In this document: piece after piece, positions 2,036 to 59,910 of the stretch | How positions within the stretch are numbered: position 1 is the first letter of the stretch | Layout of the letters: every line of letters begins with the position of its first letter | Assembly: GCA_034722995.1 (NCBI GenBank) | Contig: JAYEOL010000008.1 | Location: 9,975-73,974 of the forward strand | Source: Candidatus Cloacimonadota bacterium | GTDB taxonomy: Bacteria > Cloacimonadota > Cloacimonadia > JGIOTU-2 | DNA: 64,000 nucleotides | Direction: 5' to 3' | Program-made: the position numbers and the translations under genes | Notes under the pieces: model-generated | Seen by the model: only the letters and a program-made list of their open reading frames with translations | What the model was told of the DNA's origin: nothing | Databases searched by the model: none

Positions 2036-2492
2036 TCCAAAGGTTCCACCTCCACATCCGCTGGGATTGGTGAAAAAGCCAATATTTTCATGGGTTTCAT
2101 TTCCTCTCATTGAATTTCCGATACATTCCATATTTGTTTCTGCATTCTTTATACTTGCAGCTATCTTTGTTTTTGCAATCACACATAATCTCTTCTGGGT
2201 GCTATTATCACTATTTTTTCTTTTCTCTTCCCTGTTTTCCTATTTTGTGCCTACATACTACGAATTTTATGAAGACTATGTATTCATAAAAGTTCTTGTT
2301 TTTAAACGTGAGCGTAAATACTCAGAATTCAAATGTTTTTATGCTGACAAAAAGGGTGTAATGCTTGGTACTTTTGGTAAACCACGAGGACTTGATAGAT
2401 TCAGAGGTCAGTCTATTAGATTTACAAAAAAGCAAAAAGAAAGAGAAGAGGTGCTGAACTTCCTTGATGAAAAGATAGGAAACCGTTACTAA
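2025..2492 (+). CDS. hypothetical membrane protein
   Basis: 155-aa ORF with two hydrophobic helices then a basic soluble tail. Its start overlaps the yicC stop and its stop overlaps the rnr start (ATGA), consistent with translational coupling. Confidence 0.35.
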   Translation: MLSSPKVPPPHPLGLVKKPIFSWVSFPLIEFPIHSIFVSAFFILAAIFVFAITHNLFWVLLSLFFLFSSLFSYFVPTYYEFYEDYVFIKVLVFKRERKYSEFKCFYADKKGVMLGTFGKPRGLDRFRGQSIRFTKKQKEREEVLNFLDEKIGNRY

Positions 2493-4684
2493 TGACTAAC
2501 AAAGACAAGTCTGAAGTGATTCTTAATTTCCTTCATAAGAATGCAAACAAAGAATTCACAATTAGAAAATTGGCGAGAATATTCAGAATTAAAAAACGAA
2601 ATTATTCAAACTTTAAAAAGAGTATACTTCAACTAACAAAGAATGCCAAAATTCGCAGAAAAGGCAAAAAGTATTACTCTACACCTGTTTACAATACAAT
2701 TGAAGGCACTTTTGATGCGTCAGCTCTTGCAAAAAACTATCCTTTTGCCTTTGTAAGAACTGATAAAGAAGACATTAAAATATACCTTGAGGATTGTCTA
2801 AATGCCTATCACAATGATATTGTTGAATTGGTTGTTACAAAGCGCAATCATCGTCGAGTAACTGGAAAAATCCTGAAGATTATAAAGAGAAAAAATGAAA
2901 CGATAGTTGGAAATTCATATAAATTAAATGATAAATCATTTGTAATTCCTGATAATCAAAAAATAGATAACCATATTAAATTAATTGATTTATCAACAAG
3001 TCAAAATGAATTTTTAGAAAAAAAGGTTATCGTTCATATAACAGATTGGGGAAATAGAAAAAGAAACATATATCCAAAAGGTAAAGTAACTGAGATATTA
3101 GGGAATGCAAACGACCCAAATATTGATTTTTTATCCGTATTAAACCAATACAATCTTCCAGGAGAGTTCAAGTCCCGATATATCGGGACGGATGAATCAC
3201 TGAAGTTGCAGGAATTTATTGACAAAGTGGAAATTAGAAGAAGAAAAAACTTTGTAGATATAACAACATTTACAATTGACCCTATAACAGCAAAAGATTT
3301 TGATGATGCAATTTCCTTAGAAGAAATAGAAACTGGATATAAACTTTATGTTCACATTTCTGATGTTTCTCATTATGTTAAAGTTGAATCCCCTATCTTT
3401 AAAGAAGCATTTAAAAGAGGCACAAGTGTTTACTTACTTCAAAAAGTGATACCAATGCTCCCATCAAATATGAGCAATAATATCTGCAGTTTGCAACCTA
3501 GCAAGGATAGACTCGCTATTTCTGTAACAATAGAATATGATAAAAACTTTAACCAAATTAAAGGGGAAATTTATCCTTCTATAATTCGTAGTGATGCCCG
3601 ACTTAATTATCAGCAAGTAGATAAACTTTTTGAAGGCAGTGATTTTTCGCCACAAAGACTCAAAGGCACTAAGAAAAATTATAACAAAAGCAAAAGTCAT
3701 TCTTCGTGCCTTAGTGCCTTAGTGGCTAACTCTGAAATTGCGCCAAAAATCAAAGAAGTCTTATTAAAAATGCGACCTCTGGCAAAGCATTTGACAGAAT
3801 TGAGATATGCAAGAGGAGGACTGGATTTTGACCTGCCGGATTCTGAATTTGAATTTGATGAAAATGGAAGTCCGATAAATATTTTACGAACCAGAGAGAC
3901 AGAGAGCCATCTGCTTATTGAAGAATTTATGCTTGCAGCAAATCAATATATCGCAGAATTAATTGCAAGAAAGTGTAATTCCGCAATATTTCGCATTCAT
4001 GAGAAACCTGACCCTGACAAAATGGGCGAGTTCGCTTTGATAGTAAAATCATACAACTATAGCTTAAATTTTACTCAAAAAAATCAAAATTTAGCACTGA
4101 AACAGTTTTTGAATTCTATCAAAAATGAAAATCATCATAGAGTTTTTGACAATTTGCTTTTACGAAGCCTTATGAAGGCAAAATATTCTTATAGAAATAT
4201 TGGACACTTTGGGCTGGCTCTAAAATCTTACACCCATTTCACCTCCCCTATTAGAAGATTTCCTGATCTTGTTGTTCATCATCTTCTTAAACAAAATGTT
4301 TTTGGCTGGTCATCCACCAGATTTTCTCTCTCAGATATAAAGTCATTTGCACAAAAATCGTCAGAAATGGAACTGGTAGCAACGAATGCGGAAAGAACTT
4401 TAGGAAAATTGAAGAAAAATCGGTTTATGAAAGATAATATTGGAAAAGATTTCAAAGCTTTAATTGTAAATTTCAATAATAAAAATATCTTTATTGAATT
4501 GGACAAATACCCAATTGAAGGCTTTATTCCCCTATCTTCTATCACTGATGATTATTATCAATTTAATAGCAATAAATATTGCATAATCGGAAAAAGAAAG
4601 AAACGCGGGTTCTTTTTATGCCAGCAAATCCAAGTAAAAGTCAAAAAGGTAGAACACGAAATTGAATTTAAACTCATTCAATAA
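2492..4684 (+). CDS. rnr: ribonuclease R (RNB family exoribonuclease)
   Basis: RNB-domain motifs ITIDPITAKDFDDAISLE and HFGLALKSYTHFTSPIRRFPDLVVHH. 730 aa, with a C-terminal S1-like basic region. Confidence 0.85.
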   Translation: MTNKDKSEVILNFLHKNANKEFTIRKLARIFRIKKRNYSNFKKSILQLTKNAKIRRKGKKYYSTPVYNTIEGTFDASALAKNYPFAFVRTDKEDIKIYLEDCLNAYHNDIVELVVTKRNHRRVTGKILKIIKRKNETIVGNSYKLNDKSFVIPDNQKIDNHIKLIDLSTSQNEFLEKKVIVHITDWGNRKRNIYPKGKVTEILGNANDPNIDFLSVLNQYNLPGEFKSRYIGTDESLKLQEFIDKVEIRRRKNFVDITTFTIDPITAKDFDDAISLEEIETGYKLYVHISDVSHYVKVESPIFKEAFKRGTSVYLLQKVIPMLPSNMSNNICSLQPSKDRLAISVTIEYDKNFNQIKGEIYPSIIRSDARLNYQQVDKLFEGSDFSPQRLKGTKKNYNKSKSHSSCLSALVANSEIAPKIKEVLLKMRPLAKHLTELRYARGGLDFDLPDSEFEFDENGSPINILRTRETESHLLIEEFMLAANQYIAELIARKCNSAIFRIHEKPDPDKMGEFALIVKSYNYSLNFTQKNQNLALKQFLNSIKNENHHRVFDNLLLRSLMKAKYSYRNIGHFGLALKSYTHFTSPIRRFPDLVVHHLLKQNVFGWSSTRFSLSDIKSFAQKSSEMELVATNAERTLGKLKKNRFMKDNIGKDFKALIVNFNNKNIFIELDKYPIEGFIPLSSITDDYYQFNSNKYCIIGKRKKRGFFLCQQIQVKVKKVEHEIEFKLIQ

Positions 4685-7298: not shown

Positions 7299-9158
7299 TT
7301 ATTTCAAGAGCAAACATTTTCTAGTATCAATAAACTTATCACCAACTTCTAATCTATAAAAATAAATCCCTGAACTTAATTCATTTCCTTTCTCATCCTT
7401 TCCATCCCATACAATTGACGATTGACGATTGTCTATTGACAATTGTTTTATAAGTTGTCCTTTGGTATTATAGATCTTTATCTCAGTATCATCTATGTTT
7501 CTATGGCTAAGAGAAAAAGAAATTGTTGTTGAAGAATTGAAAGGGTTGGGATAGTTCTGGTTTAATTTGGTAGATATAACAGGAACATTATCAACACCTG
7601 ATCCTATTATAGTAAGAATAACAGGAACAGTAATTGTACCTACATCTGGCTCAGAAGTAAATATAATATCAGCAGTTAAGATTGTTCCCGGCGTCTGTCC
7701 ATAGCTATACATTCTGAGAGGCCAATCATAACTTTGTCCTGCTACTATTATACCTTCCATTGGTGGTGGCGGAGGTGGTGGCCAATAACCAAGCTTATAA
7801 CCAAACAGTATATCAGGAGTTCCTTGAGCTAATCCTCCAAGAACCCATGTGCCAAATTCTATATCGCCTGATGTAAACAACCCACCAGCTATTGTTCCAG
7901 GGAAATCTCCACTTACACTGTGGATTACTCCAGTAAGAGCTAAAGTATTAAGATCATATTGCTCTACCTGACATCCATCTCCAGTTGAAGTACCTGTGAA
8001 AATCCATAAGTATGGTCCACCGGGTGTTATATTATCATAAGCGGAACCATACATGCTTGGTGGTGCATAAATAGTATTAAGCACATTTCCTGACCTATCT
8101 ACAAGCTTGAGATCTTCTGACCAGTTATTTACCCAGAATGCATCATTATCCTCATCATAAGCAATAGACCTAACTTGAGAAGCAGGACACGGGATGGTAT
8201 TAACTAAAGTCTGAGTATCAAAATCCATTTGCCAGATATAGTTACTTGCATCACTTCCATAGAAATAGGTTCCATCGTATGCAAGGTCTCTTAAGTCTAT
8301 TACTCCGGGTATATAGAATATCTCAATAAAGTTACCATCAAGGTCAAACTTCGCAATCTCACCACTTCCACTCCATTTTGTAGTATATAGATAATTTCTA
8401 TCTGTTTCTGCTGATACCAAGCCAACTAAACCAGAAGGAGTATCTACATCATACGCAAATAATACATCCCAGATATCCTTGGCAGGTGGATTATATGGAA
8501 CTGTCTGGTTAGGATCAACTTCAGCATAACCTGAATAATCAATCTGTGTTTTACATAATTTTCTCTTATTTATAGTAGTATAAGAATTATCTATAAAATC
8601 TTGAATATTATTTTTATATAACTCTGGAAATACAATATGTGAATACCAATGTAGTGGTCCATTACCATCATTGCTAATTGTAAGATAGACTGTAAGCTGG
8701 GTATTTGGAACCATGCTCGTATCTACATAAGTAGGATATATTGACATTGTGGGAGCAGTCATTTCTTTGTTAATTTGTATTATTATATTTTCAAGTACTT
8801 CTATTCCATTAAGAGTTATTGTATTATAACCTGTTTTAGAAAATATTAAACTATAAATGCCTGCTGGTATACCATACAAGTAATAAAAACCTGTAGAATC
8901 AGTGGTTGTTACATATTGACATGCTTCAACTGTAACTTCCTCTAAAGGTCCTCCAGTTGCTGCAATTGTTACTGCGCCTTCAATACCTCCACTTTTAATT
9001 AATGTTTCTTCATTACTATTTATGGAATTAATTTTTTCAGAATCTAAATTTTTTGATGAACTAAACACAACTTGAGTTTTATTGTACCCATAGACAGCGT
9101 TAAATTCTAAGCATATTAATAGAAGTATAAAAAAGAATAGAACCTTCTTTTTCATCAT
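7299..9158 (-). CDS. secreted T9SS cargo protein with a CarbopepD_reg-like domain, a poly-proline linker and a Por/T9SS C-terminal sorting domain
   Basis: Signal peptide MMKKKVLFFFILLLICL. PPPPPPPP run. C-terminus NQNYPNPFNSSTTISFSL...IKIYNTKGQL...GIYFYRLEVGDKFIDTRKCLLLK matches the T9SS CTD (TIGR04183-like). Confidence 0.75.
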   Translation of the reverse strand: MMKKKVLFFFILLLICLEFNAVYGYNKTQVVFSSSKNLDSEKINSINSNEETLIKSGGIEGAVTIAATGGPLEEVTVEACQYVTTTDSTGFYYLYGIPAGIYSLIFSKTGYNTITLNGIEVLENIIIQINKEMTAPTMSIYPTYVDTSMVPNTQLTVYLTISNDGNGPLHWYSHIVFPELYKNNIQDFIDNSYTTINKRKLCKTQIDYSGYAEVDPNQTVPYNPPAKDIWDVLFAYDVDTPSGLVGLVSAETDRNYLYTTKWSGSGEIAKFDLDGNFIEIFYIPGVIDLRDLAYDGTYFYGSDASNYIWQMDFDTQTLVNTIPCPASQVRSIAYDEDNDAFWVNNWSEDLKLVDRSGNVLNTIYAPPSMYGSAYDNITPGGPYLWIFTGTSTGDGCQVEQYDLNTLALTGVIHSVSGDFPGTIAGGLFTSGDIEFGTWVLGGLAQGTPDILFGYKLGYWPPPPPPPMEGIIVAGQSYDWPLRMYSYGQTPGTILTADIIFTSEPDVGTITVPVILTIIGSGVDNVPVISTKLNQNYPNPFNSSTTISFSLSHRNIDDTEIKIYNTKGQLIKQLSIDNRQSSIVWDGKDEKGNELSSGIYFYRLEVGDKFIDTRKCLLLK

Positions 9159-26984: not shown

Positions 26985-27224
26985 CTTACTCCTATGAATT
27001 ATTTGGTATCTGCTCGTAAATTGTAGAGTCCCGATGATATCGGGATCTCAATTGCTCTAAATATCATTTTAATTTAGTACAATTTATCGCAAATGAAGAC
27101 ATTTGCATTACAAATACCCAAAAAGGACTTTACGGACAGACACTATTCAGCCACGAGTTAATACAGAAATTTTCTAAATATTATGTTAAACACTTAGTGG
27201 TCTTTGTGCTCTTTGTGTTTCAAC

Positions 27225-31425: not shown

Positions 31426-31742
31426 CGCAGACCTGCCCGCCGCACAAGGCTTTGGCAGGCGGGGACACAGAGAACACAGAGATAATTTCTATTTCTTTTT
31501 TAACCTCTCATTCCCAAGCCCTCCCCAATCCGAGGAGTCGTCATGGACCACTCCATGACGAACTTAAAACCAACCACTAAATATCTTTTCCAAAGGATCT
31601 GCCCGGCTGGTATGAAATGTCAGGGAATGGTCCGTTCTTCGTAGTCCCGATAAATCGGGACGAAGGATGAATCCCTGACAGCGCATAAATTTTCACTCTC
31701 CTTTGAGTTCCGACAAGTCGGAATTGACATGTATGTTTCATA
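31426..31742. repeat. 317-bp GC-rich multi-hairpin spacer inside the bat operon (between batC and batD)
   Basis: Several strong inverted repeats: TCGTCATGG-N6-CCATGACGA, GTCAGGGAAT...ATCCCTGAC enclosing GTCCCGAT-AAA-TCGGGAC, and TTCCGAC-AAG-TCGGAA. The small ORFs here are likely spurious. Confidence 0.5.
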
Positions 31743-56014: not shown

Positions 56015-56206
56015 TTCAAGTTTCGCAGGAGTAATGAAAAATATTATAACTTTACTGTTTAAAACCGCACCTGCAGAAGGTAGAGAGACTATAGAAGATA
56101 ATAGGAATGAATGTAGAAGCATGGGCTTCTTGTAATTACTTTACCAATTTAGGAATTGGTAAAGAGAATCATACCTTGCTTTTTACTAACAGCCCCCTAG
56201 CTGACC

Positions 56207-56276
56207 CACTCTCTTTACCAAGCCCTCTCTCCACTCTCTTTACCAAGCCCTCTCTCCACTCTCTTTACCAAGCCCC
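56207..56276. repeat. tandem direct repeat, 25-bp unit CACTCTCTTTACCAAGCCCTCTCTC x ~2.8, flanked by hairpins CTTTACCAA...TTGGTAAAG
   Basis: Read directly from the purL-purQ spacer. The flanking inverted repeats at 56139-56164 and 56263-56288 share the half-site carried by each repeat unit. Confidence 0.6.
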
Positions 56277-56503
56277 AGCTTGGTAAAGCATATTTCACAT
56301 TCTAATGTCCTCTGATAAAATGCAAAATAATCTTATAAACCATGATAATGCAGCTTAAATCACCAATCTTGAACTTACATGTAACTATTTAAATATCAAT
56401 ATCTTATTGAGATATTGCAAAGATAAAAAATGAATTATTCAGTGATCTCCACTCCTGCGAAATTTGAGTTATTAAACTCATAATAATAATAAAAATAATA
56501 AAA

Positions 56504-57304
56504 ATGGCAAAACCAAATGTTTTGGTAATGACTGGATATGGGATTAATTGTGATGAAGAAACTAGCTTTGCCTTTGAAAAAGCAGGAGCAAATTCAGAAA
56601 TAGTCCACATCAATGATTTAATTGATGGCTATAAAAAACTAAATGATTATCAAATCCTGGTCCTTCCAGGTGGATTTTCTTATGGAGATGACACTGGCTC
56701 TGGCAATGCTTTAGCAAATAAAATTAAAAACAATTTCTGGTATGAAATAAAAGATTTTGTTGAGAAAGACCATCTAGCAATAGGAATCTGTAATGGTTTT
56801 CAAGTTATGGTTAATCTCGGTCTGCTCCCTGCTTTAGATAAACAATATGGTGAAAGAAATGTTGCACTAATCTACAACAATTCAGCCAGATACATTGACA
56901 GATGGGTTGATTTACAATTTAAAGGCAACAGTCCATGGATTAATGGAATAGATAAGATTAGTTTGCCAATAGCACATAAAGAGGGTAAATTCTATACAGA
57001 ACCAAAAATACTGGCAAAGATTAAGGAACATAACCTAATTGCAGCAAAATATATTAAAGGCAGCATATGTAAATATCAAAGTTTAAAGGCAAATCCAAAT
57101 GGCTCTCTTGAAGATATTGCAAGTATTACAGATGAATCTAAAAGACTTATTGGAATAATGCCGCATCCTGAAAGAGCCATAGATTTTACTCAACTTCCTA
57201 ACTGGACATTGTCAAAAGAAAAATATCAAAGAAAGGGGAAAAAACTCCCGGAACAAGGTCCGGAATTACAAATCTTTAGAAACGCAGTAAAATATTTTCA
57301 ATAA
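56504..57304 (+). CDS. purQ: phosphoribosylformylglycinamidine synthase glutaminase subunit
   Basis: MAKPNVLVMTGYGINCDEE, GICNGFQ (catalytic Cys), and HPER near the C-terminus. Confidence 0.8.
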   Translation: MAKPNVLVMTGYGINCDEETSFAFEKAGANSEIVHINDLIDGYKKLNDYQILVLPGGFSYGDDTGSGNALANKIKNNFWYEIKDFVEKDHLAIGICNGFQVMVNLGLLPALDKQYGERNVALIYNNSARYIDRWVDLQFKGNSPWINGIDKISLPIAHKEGKFYTEPKILAKIKEHNLIAAKYIKGSICKYQSLKANPNGSLEDIASITDESKRLIGIMPHPERAIDFTQLPNWTLSKEKYQRKGKKLPEQGPELQIFRNAVKYFQ

Positions 57305-57338: not shown

Positions 57339-59831
57339 TTATCGTATCAATATCATCTTTTTGATGAGCGTCTTACCTTCTGCTTCAAATTTATAGAAGT
57401 ATATACCTGAACTCATCCCTGTCCCCGCGGACGCGGGGATCTCGAGGACATCCCAATCAACAGTATGATAACCGGCAGGTTTATTTTCATCAACTAAAGT
57501 TTTAACTAATTGGCCTTTAATATTGTAAATCTTAATACTCACATGAGCTGGTTTTGGTAATGTATAACTAATTGAAGTTTTTTTAGTAAAAGGATTTGGA
57601 TAGTTTTGAGTAATGAAAAATTTATTGGTTATTATATCTTTATCAGTTTGATAATTAATGCCATCAAAAGCGAAAATCTGTATATCATCAATATTCCAGC
57701 CACAATAAGTCCATCCACCGTCGGTAGGACCCATCACCCAGCGTAAATACACAGTTGGCTGATTATCCGCTTTATCTGAGATGTCTAAATCCATTTGAGT
57801 CCATGAATAATCAGTAATCTCAGTTAAATTTTGCCAGACAGTTGTCCAATTAGTACTATCATTACTAACCCTTACATACGCATGGTCGTATGCAGGTTGT
57901 TCAACACCTAACCAACGCCAGAACTTCAAGTGCACATTATATAAATCTGAACAATCTATTGCCCGAGTTGTTAAACACTTTTCTGGAAGATTATTTGGAT
58001 AGTCACCATTAAGATTATATCCATAAACATTATCTCCTGTGTAACCACTTGTTGGGTCTGGATCTCCATGTTGACCACCACCACCAGTTGGTTGACCGAA
58101 CTCCCAATCTCCTGCAATATTCCAACCTGGGTCCCTGTTAAGACACCACTGGTATCTTAAGGTCGCTTCTCCAATTGCTAACCCCACTTGACGAGTAGTA
58201 TCACCTAAGTGATTTGTAGTATTAGTAAAAGAAATCGTAGTAAAATGTACACCTTCACTTAAGCTTGTAGCATTACTATTAATTTCAACAATCACCTCTG
58301 CAGTGTCAGTTGGTTCAAGAAAACCAGATATATCACCAGAAAGACTTAGCCAATCAGCAATCAGGTTTTGTGTTACTTCATAGTTGATGGATAGAGTATC
58401 TCTATTCTTAATTATATATGTTTTACTTAAAGGTGAGAATGGACCACCAACAGGTCCTTCTGATTGGAAATCATCCTCAGGGTTAACCCGCATACCTCTA
58501 TTTACAGTTAAAGCTTTAGTGCAAAAGTTTGCTGTACCATTCCAGGACGGATCGTCAAATACATAGTCATAAAAATCCAGCCAGGTTGAACCACTAAAGT
58601 AATAACTCTCATCCGGATTTGCTGCTGATTCAACAATAGTTCTATACTGAGCTCCAAGCAAGACAGGAACATCAGAGGTTCTGTCATACGGCTGTCCACC
58701 AGCAGATAGTTCAAGATAGATGTAAAAATCATCATCTGGATTAAGTCCAACAGGCGTTTCTAAATCTATAGTATGAAATCCTGTATAGTTAATTGTATCG
58801 GTTTTTGATGAAAGCTCATCTAACAATACACCACCTTCAAATCGGTCGTAAACTTTTACTGTGTAAATCACATTGTCTACAGCTGTAAAAAAACTCACTG
58901 ATTCTAACAATTCATTGCCTTCAGATATGAATTTATTAAATGCTTTATTACAACCTGTTTTTGTATCACGCCAACCATGATAGTCATGGTAATAGATATG
59001 GTCGTAATGCAAGGGTTCGGTATCTTGAAAGGAAATTGCTCCCATTTCAGGATGTTGACAGCAATGTTTATCATAATAGGAAATCCAGAAATAACCATCA
59101 ATACCCCAACCTGTTCCCCAACTATTCTTGCATATCCAGGCACCTGGCTCAGGAGCTTCAGTAACTATGCTATCATCCCAACCTATTATAGCAACAGCAT
59201 GATTGGGGTCCAATGTACTACTTGGTGGTTGATAATGGATATATTCCCAATTAATAAATGATGAATTATAGCACATACAAGTTCCCAGCACACCTTTTTC
59301 CATAATCTTGTTCTTTATTGTATTAATGTCGCTTAGATCGGAACCTGCTACATACCACTCAATATCTTTAACATAGTAGAAATGATAACCAGGGTCAAAT
59401 CTTAACGGAGGGGTGCTGTATGATTGACCATCTATATCTCGCACCGCTCCCTCACTACGAGTGAGATATGCAGAAGTAACTCTGTAGTCACCACCTTCAT
59501 GCACAGTAAGACCTCCTCCAGTTGGTGGATCTGTATCATCATTATTATGCTGGTTGAATCCATTCCACCAATCAAGATGATATTCTGCAAGATTTGGCTC
59601 ACCAATTTCTCCGGCAGCAGTCCATGCACCTGTCATCATAAGATTACCCTCTATGGCAGCCATTGCACCATGACACCAGCAGGTTCCTCCTTGTTGATTC
59701 TTAATTGAAGTTACATAATTTTCTCCGTTAACATCACGTAAATCAAAAGTGGATGGTGGGTCCGCGAAAGACTTCATAGTAATAATTAAAAAGATAAATA
59801 GTAAAATTAAAAATAATATTGCTTTTTTCAT
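57339..59831 (-). CDS. C1 (papain-like) cysteine peptidase with large beta-rich extension and T9SS CTD
   Basis: Signal peptide. QQGGTCWCHGAMAAIEGN papain-family catalytic Cys motif. C-terminus NYPNPFTKKTSISYTL...IKIYNIKGQLVKTL...GIYFYKFEAEGKTLIKKMILIR. Confidence 0.7.
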   Translation of the reverse strand: MKKAILFLILLFIFLIITMKSFADPPSTFDLRDVNGENYVTSIKNQQGGTCWCHGAMAAIEGNLMMTGAWTAAGEIGEPNLAEYHLDWWNGFNQHNNDDTDPPTGGGLTVHEGGDYRVTSAYLTRSEGAVRDIDGQSYSTPPLRFDPGYHFYYVKDIEWYVAGSDLSDINTIKNKIMEKGVLGTCMCYNSSFINWEYIHYQPPSSTLDPNHAVAIIGWDDSIVTEAPEPGAWICKNSWGTGWGIDGYFWISYYDKHCCQHPEMGAISFQDTEPLHYDHIYYHDYHGWRDTKTGCNKAFNKFISEGNELLESVSFFTAVDNVIYTVKVYDRFEGGVLLDELSSKTDTINYTGFHTIDLETPVGLNPDDDFYIYLELSAGGQPYDRTSDVPVLLGAQYRTIVESAANPDESYYFSGSTWLDFYDYVFDDPSWNGTANFCTKALTVNRGMRVNPEDDFQSEGPVGGPFSPLSKTYIIKNRDTLSINYEVTQNLIADWLSLSGDISGFLEPTDTAEVIVEINSNATSLSEGVHFTTISFTNTTNHLGDTTRQVGLAIGEATLRYQWCLNRDPGWNIAGDWEFGQPTGGGGQHGDPDPTSGYTGDNVYGYNLNGDYPNNLPEKCLTTRAIDCSDLYNVHLKFWRWLGVEQPAYDHAYVRVSNDSTNWTTVWQNLTEITDYSWTQMDLDISDKADNQPTVYLRWVMGPTDGGWTYCGWNIDDIQIFAFDGINYQTDKDIITNKFFITQNYPNPFTKKTSISYTLPKPAHVSIKIYNIKGQLVKTLVDENKPAGYHTVDWDVLEIPASAGTGMSSGIYFYKFEAEGKTLIKKMILIR

Positions 59832-59878: not shown

Positions 59879-59910
59879 TTGCGAATCCACCAGCTGGCGG
59901 ACATTCGCAA
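59879..59910. terminator. GC-rich hairpin TTGCGAAT-CCACCAGCTGGCGG-ATTCGCAA; possible terminator of the 60135-60563 gene
   Basis: 8-bp stem around a near-copy of the palindrome CCGCCAGCTGGCGG seen inside two CTD coding regions. No clear U-tract, so terminator function is uncertain. Confidence 0.35.

Follow-up and report, generated by a model that had tools for sequence, protein, structure and literature searches.

A 64,000-nucleotide stretch of a Candidatus Cloacimonadota contig (hereafter the window) carries at positions 57422–57439 an 18-bp GC-rich palindrome that lies in frame within the gene for a C1 peptidase, in the part encoding the C-terminal domain (CTD) that serves as the tag for the type IX secretion system (T9SS). 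We propose, with a probability of roughly 0.7, that this palindrome is a copy of the core stem-loop of a hairpin repeat of the NTS/SRM type (NTS, Neisseria Transformation Sequence; SRM, Ssn-related motif), that it inserted into a loop of the CTD, where it is translated, nearly neutral and inert, and that the same CTD also served as a recombination junction. Hairpin repeats of the NTS/SRM type are known already, and the novelty would be the presence of such a hairpin in frame within a T9SS CTD loop; our literature search found no account of this, which is weak negative evidence, and yielded nothing useful on palindromic repeats of Cloacimonadota or on repeat-derived peptides (IPAFAGMT and similar).

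An in-frame hairpin insertion in a secretion-tag loop

The palindrome, TCCCCGCG-GA-CGCGGGGA (TCCCCGCGGACGCGGGGA), is made up of two 8-bp arms and a 2-nt spacer. Its host is an open reading frame (ORF) of 830 codons on the minus strand (57339–59831) with Pfam Peptidase_C1, Lectin_like and Por_Secre_tail/FlgD_ig domains, the product of which is 100% identical to an NCBI protein from one Candidatus Cloacimonadota metagenome-assembled genome (MAG). On the minus (coding) strand the palindrome reads ATC CCC GCG TCC GCG GGG A, inside HTVDWDVLEIPASAGTGMSSGIYFY, and is translated in frame as IPASAG in the context W-D-V-L-E-I-P-A-S-A-G-T-G-M-S-S-G-I-Y-F-Y. The exact match and the translation thus bear out the initial annotation, made from the sequence alone, which had placed a palindrome at 57422–57439, in frame in the CTD of the C1 peptidase and just upstream of GIYFY. 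No matches to the palindrome were produced by chance in 100 dinucleotide-preserving shuffles of the window, even when up to three mismatches were allowed. The palindrome is one of about eight GC-rich islands in the window, which has a GC content of 32%, and GC-rich perfect hairpins form 8 clusters there, compared to 0.43 expected from a first-order Markov simulation (maximum of 3 in 30 runs). The folding energy of the palindrome as single-stranded DNA (ssDNA) was estimated at about −8.3 to −8.7 kcal/mol, with a hairpin that is stable on both strands.

Comparison with orthologous genes indicated that the palindrome is an insertion of DNA rather than an effect of codon usage. Among full-length orthologs, the most similar are P0002 (87% identity; loci L001–L003) and P0003/P0004 (81%; L004). 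In these proteins the corresponding site reads W-N-A-K-G/D-L/M-S-S-G-I-Y-F-Y, so both the residues and the bases of the palindrome are missing, and the alignment of the ortholog DNA shows a clean 24-nt gap facing CTCGAGATCCCCGCGTCCGCGGGG. Relative to the L001 and L004 orthologs there is, consequently, a net in-frame insertion of 24 nt at 57423–57446 (minus strand CTCGAGATCCCCGCGTCCGCGGGG, encoding LEIPASAG). A partial ortholog from a closer relative, P0121 (L159, MAG RS_16_45), has an intermediate loop, W-N-V-L-E-K-S-R-M-S-S-G, with respect to which the net gain is 15 nt (57425–57439), K-S-R being replaced by I-P-A-S-A-G-T-G; the boundaries of the insertion are uncertain by a few nucleotides. 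As L159 carries the V-L-E...M patch, this patch predates the palindrome. The initial annotation had considered that the palindrome might be unique to this locus, with the same residues encoded by non-palindromic codons in the orthologs, and this fails on both counts. A target-site duplication (CATCCC...CATCCC) was also considered and dropped; the L159-type allele explains the flanks better. Over the whole gene, sliding-window identity to L001 and L004 describes a mosaic (0.61–0.99) in which the 3' end is not singled out.

The host domain is a T9SS type-A CTD encoded at 57342–57602 on the minus strand (residues 744–827; PF18962, 35.1 bits, cutoff 27), the C-terminal part of a C1-peptidase/lectin-like protein. 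An AlphaFold2 model of the last 90 residues, built from an alignment of 39 CTD sequences, predicted a beta-sandwich with a mean pLDDT (predicted local distance difference test) of 91.7 and strands at residues 11–18, 22–29, 35–44, 47–54, 69–77 and 80–88. The best match among solved structures was the CTD of NucA, a T9SS substrate, in complex with the type-9 translocon (8glk_D, E 3.9e-4, TM score 0.72), and the CTDs of PorU and mirolase were also among the matches. Mapped onto this model, as the initial annotation had suggested, the inserted residues (56–63) are predicted to lie within a surface loop that connects strands 4 and 5 (55–68), where the pLDDT averages of 10-residue blocks drop to 75–82. 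In the CTD alignment the length of this loop varies among homologs, with short and long forms.

In the sequence of events that we favor, a hairpin copy would have entered the DNA for the strand 4–5 loop of the CTD of this secreted peptidase, once the lineage had diverged from the nearest relatives that have been sequenced, with a gain of 15 nt if the loop allele was already expanded or of 24 nt if it was short. Both gains are divisible by three and the palindrome is free of stop codons in all frames, so that it would have been translated through as IPASAG. T9SS CTDs are removed after export, and the insertion would be nearly neutral because it affects a length-variable surface loop of a domain that is cut off. 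For the movement of the hairpin, mobilization of the ssDNA-nuclease or transposase type, or a patch copied from another copy, may be envisaged. This route, the neutrality of the insertion and its order relative to the recombination described below are what we infer; the insertion itself, its place in the loop, its likeness to a repeat family, the recombinant build of the gene and the occurrence of hairpins in other CTDs are documented by the comparisons presented here.

Resemblance to NTS and SRM hairpin repeats

NTS (CGTCATTCCCGCGMAVGCGGGAATCYRG) and the wider SRMs are hairpin repeats of several phyla (PMC11893778, Nat Commun 2025). SRM-class hairpins are REP-like, GC-rich and 20–50 nt long, and they co-occur with Ssn nucleases of the GIY-YIG type: the repeats flank small single-domain GIY-YIG genes (ssnA), the encoded nuclease cuts them as ssDNA, and this cleavage needs an oriented upstream GTCA flank (PMC11893778). 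Cloacimonadota were not found mentioned in that study.

When bacteria and archaea were scanned for the exact 18-mer, with each species represented by one genome, at least 120 loci were obtained, and the 18-mer was present in more than 100 other genomes. Among the matches listed, those in single copy (n = 121) came mostly from Alpha-, Beta- and Gammaproteobacteria and Actinobacteria. In these 121 matches the core is preceded at positions −3 to −1 by T (94), C (101) and a purine (107; 69 A and 38 G) and is followed at +1 to +5 by a pyrimidine (C 54, T 50), C (100), C (87), A (77) and G (68), which gives a consensus GTCR-core-YCCAG that matches the published NTS. Many copies constitute one arm of an inverted doublet, such as GCTCA-core-CCCAGCCTTTGCC...GGCAAAGTCTGGATTCCCGCGTCCGCGGGAATGAGC. 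In a Brevundimonas locus (L063) two inverted exact 18-mers bracket an ORF for a 93-residue single-domain GIY-YIG protein (Pfam GIY-YIG, E 7.6e-15), and a 95-residue GIY-YIG homolog is encoded inside another 8-kb locus fetched on the 18-mer (L071). The palindrome reported in the initial annotation is real, and what had been missed is its kinship to a known hairpin-repeat family that spans phyla. A scan of viral contigs gave 4 matches, all in GC-rich contigs and uninformative for the Cloacimonadota lineage.

Six of the matches listed were CRISPR arrays with a period of 61 bp in which the 18-mer is the stem-loop of the repeat (L010, L025, L026, L038, L044 and L122; hosts Gordonia, Streptomyces, Microbacterium, Aeromonas and two others). 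In the CRISPR and the NTS-like copies alike, TCA directly precedes the stem on its 5' side. A contig of 36% GC (L153) has a comparable array of GC-rich repeats.

The exact 18-mer was also found in at least four other Cloacimonadota MAGs (L020, L069, L118 and L121; 33–39% GC), in all cases in non-coding sequence. At such composition we estimate about 1e-13 chance matches per position, so that four copies would be far beyond chance. Canonical flanks are present in two of them: the copy in L020 lies upstream of a gene with the flanks CGTCAA-core-TTGCAG, and that in L121 sits within the loop of a further NTS-like hairpin, GTCATTCCCGTGA[core]GGGAATCCAG. In L069 and L118 the 18-mer is part of a conserved ~200-nt non-coding element that both loci have. 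The genomic contexts of these copies are unrelated to one another, and a search of Rfam with the 56–64 kb part of the window and the four loci returned only a tRNA-Sec beside the L069 element and nothing for the ~200-nt element itself.

The repeat class is resident in the genome that carries the insertion, as a canonical NTS-like inverted doublet (GTCAT...ATCC) is found at 60618–60708, where GTCATTCCGCACTTGATTCGGAATCC is followed by a spacer and by the reverse complement of GTCATTCCAGTGAAAGCT[TGTCCTCAAGAAATTGGGGAC]GGGAATCC; its nested 19-nt hairpin TGTCCTCAAGAAATTGGGGAC is present only in the window and missing from L001. Canonical GTCAT...ATCC elements occur both in the window and in its relatives. 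Over the ~2 kb upstream of the peptidase gene, hairpins have turned over between the window and L001, being present or absent, nested or swapped at several sites, and several GC-rich hairpin blocks exist in only one of the two sequences. At 59886–59901, 55 nt upstream of the peptidase ATG, the leader contains the hairpin TCCACCAGCTGGCGGA, which differs by one mismatch from the TCCGCCAGCTGGCGGA family and is enclosed by an outer stem (TTGCGAA...TTCGCAA); the corresponding site of L001 is occupied by another hairpin, TCCCGATATATCGGGA.

Several observations weigh against the assignment of the window palindrome to this family and against the insertion as we describe it. The mechanism by which NTS/SRM repeats spread is not established even in the study cited above (PMC11893778). 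The SRM motif HGTCWYN(0-2)YYVSBRHN(0-5)WNVSBRGN(0-2)RNCYNB matched neither the window nor any of the Cloacimonadota loci; canonical proteobacterial copies such as CCGTCATCCCCGCGGACGCGGGGATCCAGGG escape it too, because their loop is only 2 nt long. As this strict motif is unmatched, we call the element NTS/SRM-like and claim no strict membership. The window copy forms an ssDNA hairpin from an inverted repeat, as the family does, though only the 18-nt core is present: its flanks are CCCTG-core-TCTCGAG, with no GTCA on the 5' side and, on the 3' side, agreement with TCYRG at three of five positions and no clean YCCAG. The window and some 150 kb of Cloacimonadota sequence yielded no Ssn or GIY-YIG homolog, a result with little bearing on the whole genome. 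The 18-mer is in single copy in the 64 kb, even at three mismatches, and no second assembly with the insertion allele was recovered from JGI metagenomes (0 matches to the exact core 2–32 nt from a GIYFY codon block). A short-query protein search with the LEIPASAGTGM patch scored 5 short proteins, with the patch in none of them; P0121 surfaced incidentally. Finally, there are seven substitutions with respect to L001 within 21 nt around the insertion, most of them common to L159, and the alignment indicates that the event was not a simple clean insertion into an L001-type allele.

The window copy is most probably a core-only fragment of an NTS/SRM repeat. Judging from its flanks it is probably not a substrate of Ssn, and since it lacks the GTCA needed for cleavage, it would be an inert fragment.

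Other hairpins of the window and its relatives were noted in the course of the analysis. A perfect 26-bp version of TCCGCCAGCTGGCGGA, AGTTATCCGCCAGCTGGCGGATAACT, is intergenic in L001 (8070–8095). The most abundant hairpin family of the lineage, TCCCGA-N4-8-TCGGGA, is mostly intergenic, with many copies in L001–L004, L069, L118 and L121; the window has copies at 3172–3189, 10695–10712, 12659–12673, 27029–27045 and 31644–31661, and one in a non-CTD ORF (2492–4684) is in frame and read as KSRYIGT. A 24-nt palindrome with an NTS-like CGTCAT head, TCGTCATGGACCACTCCATGACGA, is identical in the window (31538–31561) and in L020 (2648–2671). A ~400-nt insertion of the window relative to L001 (60798–61196) starts with TTTACTCAAGTTTCG, and the same 15-mer starts the ~200-nt element of L069 (3730–3930) and L118 (6100–6300) that holds the 18-mer palindrome; elements that start in this way may form a family, of small size and either mobile or coding for RNA. 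The purL-purQ intergenic region contains the paired hairpins CTTTACCAA...TTGGTAAAG (window 56139–56164 and 56263–56288; L001 19929–19954), the stems of which are kept in L001 with a different loop, and which may be a regulatory or structural element.

Recombination between paralogous CTDs and hairpins in other CTDs

Alignment of L001 with the window by blastn gave two collinear blocks that overlap only in the CTD (L001 5620–12456 with window 64000–57352, and L001 18671–22469 with window 57573–53726). The window is without about 6.3 kb of L001, which hold a small ORF and a PIN-domain gene, an FRG-domain gene and the gene for a 1433-residue PKD/beta-helix protein with its own CTD; this loss sets the peptidase gene tail-to-tail with purQ. 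In a three-way alignment the window follows the CTD of the L001 peptidase at nearly all informative sites from about 57597 to 57412, and the CTD tail of the 1433-residue protein gene and the sequence downstream of it at nearly all informative sites from 57390 to 57251; above about 57597 the alignment to the latter gene is poor and the calls are mixed. The analysis of informative sites consequently places the crossover between the two CTDs at 57390–57412 (minus strand), within the block encoding S-S-G-I-Y-F-Y-K and 10–32 nt downstream of the palindrome in the sense of the gene. As read from this alignment, the peptidase gene 57339–59831 is a chimera, fused to the tail of the neighboring gene via paralogous CTDs. 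We propose that homologous recombination between the two CTDs, in direct orientation, would have removed the ~6.3 kb and created the fusion in the same event. The idea of a recombination hotspot put forward in the initial annotation thus receives direct support, the CTD being a chimera of two paralogous ones with its crossover 10–32 nt from the palindrome. The region downstream of the peptidase gene is hypervariable, and L001, L002 and L004 each have a different gene content there.

This proximity raises the most serious rival to the explanation that we favor, namely that the hairpin caused the recombination between the CTDs or marks it, through a break or nick at the extruded hairpin, recombination from hairpin to hairpin, or filler DNA left by repair. 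Apart from the short distance, it would account for the absence of the palindrome from both parental CTDs of L001, and it is in keeping with the GC hairpins found exactly at the junction with an orphan CTD tail in four unrelated metagenomic CTD genes and with an orphan tail in the window itself that starts at the same W-D position (both described below). In addition, NTS/dRS3 repeats, which cluster around variable genes, are reported to modulate ssDNA recombination (PMC11893778). However, the longest identical tracts of the parental CTDs (31 and 21 nt) fall exactly in the crossover interval, where homologous recombination would be expected whether or not a hairpin is present. Moreover, the informative site at 57412, which is of the peptidase type, separates the palindrome from the crossover, leaving the hairpin beside the junction; L159 has the VLE...M patch without hairpin and without recombination; and the window offers a single event. 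The proximity of hairpin and crossover is thus no proof by itself of a causal link, and we consider a causal role unlikely.

CTDs carry hairpins elsewhere in the window as well, where five GC hairpins in four CTDs occupy four different loops. Besides TCCCCGCGGACGCGGGGA, in the loop between strands 4 and 5, a copy of TCCGCCAGCTGGCGGA (10644–10659) gives RQLAD in the strand 1–2 loop, a second copy in another frame (15655–15672) gives SASWRM in the strand 3–4 turn, and the TCCCGA...TCGGGA copies at 10695–10712 and 12659–12673 are in frame before strand 1. With five hairpins spread over four loops, the notion that palindromes had hit the equivalent loop of different CTDs was not borne out. Most hairpins of the window are intergenic overall; among the 16 strict GC hairpins within the ORF-masked sequence, 3 fall in the 2% that codes for CTDs (five with weaker stems), a conservative figure, given that spurious ORFs account for most of the remaining 13.

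Hairpins in the strand 4–5 loop were detected in metagenomes by a scan for CCCGC-N2-6-GCGGG within 2–32 nt of an AT-rich GIYFY codon block. Ten of the 30 loci obtained, representing seven distinct genes on contigs of 34–36% GC, encode complete CTDs with an in-frame hairpin in that loop, the loop peptides being HPALRD, FPATAG, NPASGTG, EPAEAG, ARQGGS and, in L156, where the hairpin is the canonical GTCATTCCCGCGAAGGCGGGAATC, CHSREGGN. All seven hairpin-bearing CTDs matched Por_Secre_tail, six of them above the gathering score, and some have further hairpin-derived inserts in other loops (IPGQARNDN, SPLIKGGLRG). As the scan was anchored on one loop, it shows recurrence and not preference over other loops. 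The suggestion of a preferred or tolerated insertion site holds in part: recurrence in seven other CTD genes and the variable length of the loop speak for tolerance, and a preference for this loop over others is not shown.

These hairpins, in several CTDs of the window and in seven metagenome genes, mark the CTD as an unusually permissive, and possibly targeted, landing pad. In our reading CTD loops are permissive because the tag is cut off once the protein has been exported and is represented by many paralogs, with only in-frame, stop-free insertions surviving.

Additional arrangements of hairpins and CTDs were observed. In L130 (also in L155) three tandem CTD genes each have the same NTS-like hairpin, TGTCATTCCGGGCTTGACCCGGAATC, at 7781, 10322 and 11474; the first is read as IPGQARNDN in the strand 1–2 loop, and the CTD positions of the other two are deduced from their spacing to the gene ends. 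These tandem copies indicate that hairpin-bearing CTDs persist through gene duplication or conversion. Four non-orthologous genes that have the CTD alone in common (L133, ~3085; L142, ~941; L152, ~7076; L158, ~4176) present the same order of elements, consisting of a stop codon, AGC(G/A)AGTTG(A/C)G, a variable hairpin with covarying arms, (C)GAAAT and the GC hairpin CCCGC-N4-6-GCGGGAC, and directly after this hairpin an orphan CTD tail (GIYFY...KKMxLxK*) that is out of frame and stop-free. A deletion that joined the hairpins of tandem CTD genes could explain this architecture, and so could a 3'-end cassette. In the window, the minus strand at 18083–18154 encodes GLYFYQLKI*DEIIDTKKCIFLK*, an orphan CTD tail interrupted by a stop codon; it starts at the W-D position, in the strand 4–5 loop, and is followed by the same intergenic promoter module that the other tandem CTD genes have, just upstream of the gene at 15531–17966. 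This tail is probably what is left of a tandem CTD gene that was deleted.

A more general scheme, in which SRM-type hairpins recurrently colonize T9SS CTD loops in AT-rich Cloacimonadota and other CTD-bearing bacteria and, as sites of breakage or pairing, drive the exchange, fusion and truncation of CTD genes, would be suggested by the crossover near the hairpin, by the stop-hairpin-orphan-tail order in four unrelated genes and by the orphan tail of the window at the same loop. We regard such hairpin-guided shuffling of tags as speculative and rather improbable.

Other explanations and comparison with known repeat systems

Among the remaining explanations, a functional signal in RNA or DNA is very improbable. 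The hairpin might be a terminator of the convergent purQ-like gene (56504–57304, plus strand), a stabilizer of mRNA 3' ends or an operator, given its stability on both strands, its location 118 nt downstream of the stop codon of that gene and the conservation of identical copies in non-coding elements of other Cloacimonadota. Against this, there is no T-run on either strand and a terminator scan calls only 57236–57265, so an intrinsic terminator was rejected; the orthologs function without the palindrome; and there is no Rfam match, while the contexts in other genomes are mutually unrelated. It is similarly improbable that the palindrome arose by chance, through selection on the peptide or as an artefact of assembly. 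Such origins would fit the fact that a single MAG is known to have the allele, but no chance matches are expected, the residues are missing in the orthologs, the same 18-mer occupies non-homologous, non-coding sites in related MAGs, and an assembly error that happened to resume the same gene in frame 15–24 nt later would be surprising. The least credible proposal, a solitary type I-E CRISPR repeat or fragment of one, draws on the identity of the 18-mer to the stem-loop of the 61-bp-period repeats in the six genomes listed, and is opposed by its single copy with no array in 64 kb, by the missing CRISPR flanks (GGTTCA/GGCTCA-core-ACAC/GCAC) and by the NTS-type flanks of single copies elsewhere.

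The insertion of an NTS/SRM-like hairpin thus remains the explanation that we prefer, and it has several implications. The CTD-by-CTD recombination is a concrete and datable event in which a secreted protease was re-tagged and 6.3 kb were deleted. For annotation, odd peptides such as xPAxAG or RGND-like ones in CTD loops should be taken as repeat-derived and not as functional motifs. If hairpins did promote recombination, this would provide a mechanism for rapid turnover of the repertoires of secreted proteins.

We compared the element with known repeat systems. NTS/SRM hairpins were tied to a nuclease family only in 2025 and described as repeats clustering around genes, whereas here a copy or fragment is found inside translated sequence. 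The likeness lies in a short, GC-rich, hairpin-forming inverted repeat, the 18-mer of which has GTCA...YCCAG flanks in other genomes, forms inverted doublets and brackets the gene for a 93-residue single-domain GIY-YIG protein. In contrast to that family, the window copy is a core alone without the GTCA flank and is in frame inside coding sequence, the strict SRM motif is unmatched, and no ssnA homolog is present in the window or in the ~150 kb of Cloacimonadota sequence.

REP/REPIN sequences are short extragenic palindromes, often in inverted doublets, that are thought to act as ssDNA hairpins and are mobilized by RAYT transposases, which are IS200/IS605-like; the Ssn study also discusses them (PMC11893778). 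The element belongs to a comparable class of short hairpin palindromes often in inverted doublets, but there is no GTAG-type head at the window copy and the flanks of the 18-mer family are of the NTS type; no RAYT gene was seen in the 64-kb window, where no search aimed at RAYT was made. As for type I-E CRISPR, the 18-nt stem-loop is identical to that of repeats from several Actinobacteria and Proteobacteria, but in the window it has no array, no CRISPR-type flanks and no cas context.

With regard to residence in a coding sequence, the nearest parallel is offered by the Rickettsia palindromic elements (RPEs), selfish palindromes that reside in frame in genes and are translated as extra loop residues while the host protein remains intact (PMC10969869). 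The window palindrome is like RPEs in its in-frame residence in a coding gene. Unlike RPEs, which are about 100–150 bp long, encode a conserved peptide and are from Rickettsia, the insertion described here comprises 15–24 nt, about one-sixth of that size, and belongs to another sequence family and phylum, and hairpins of the window type are concentrated in a cleavable secretion tag.

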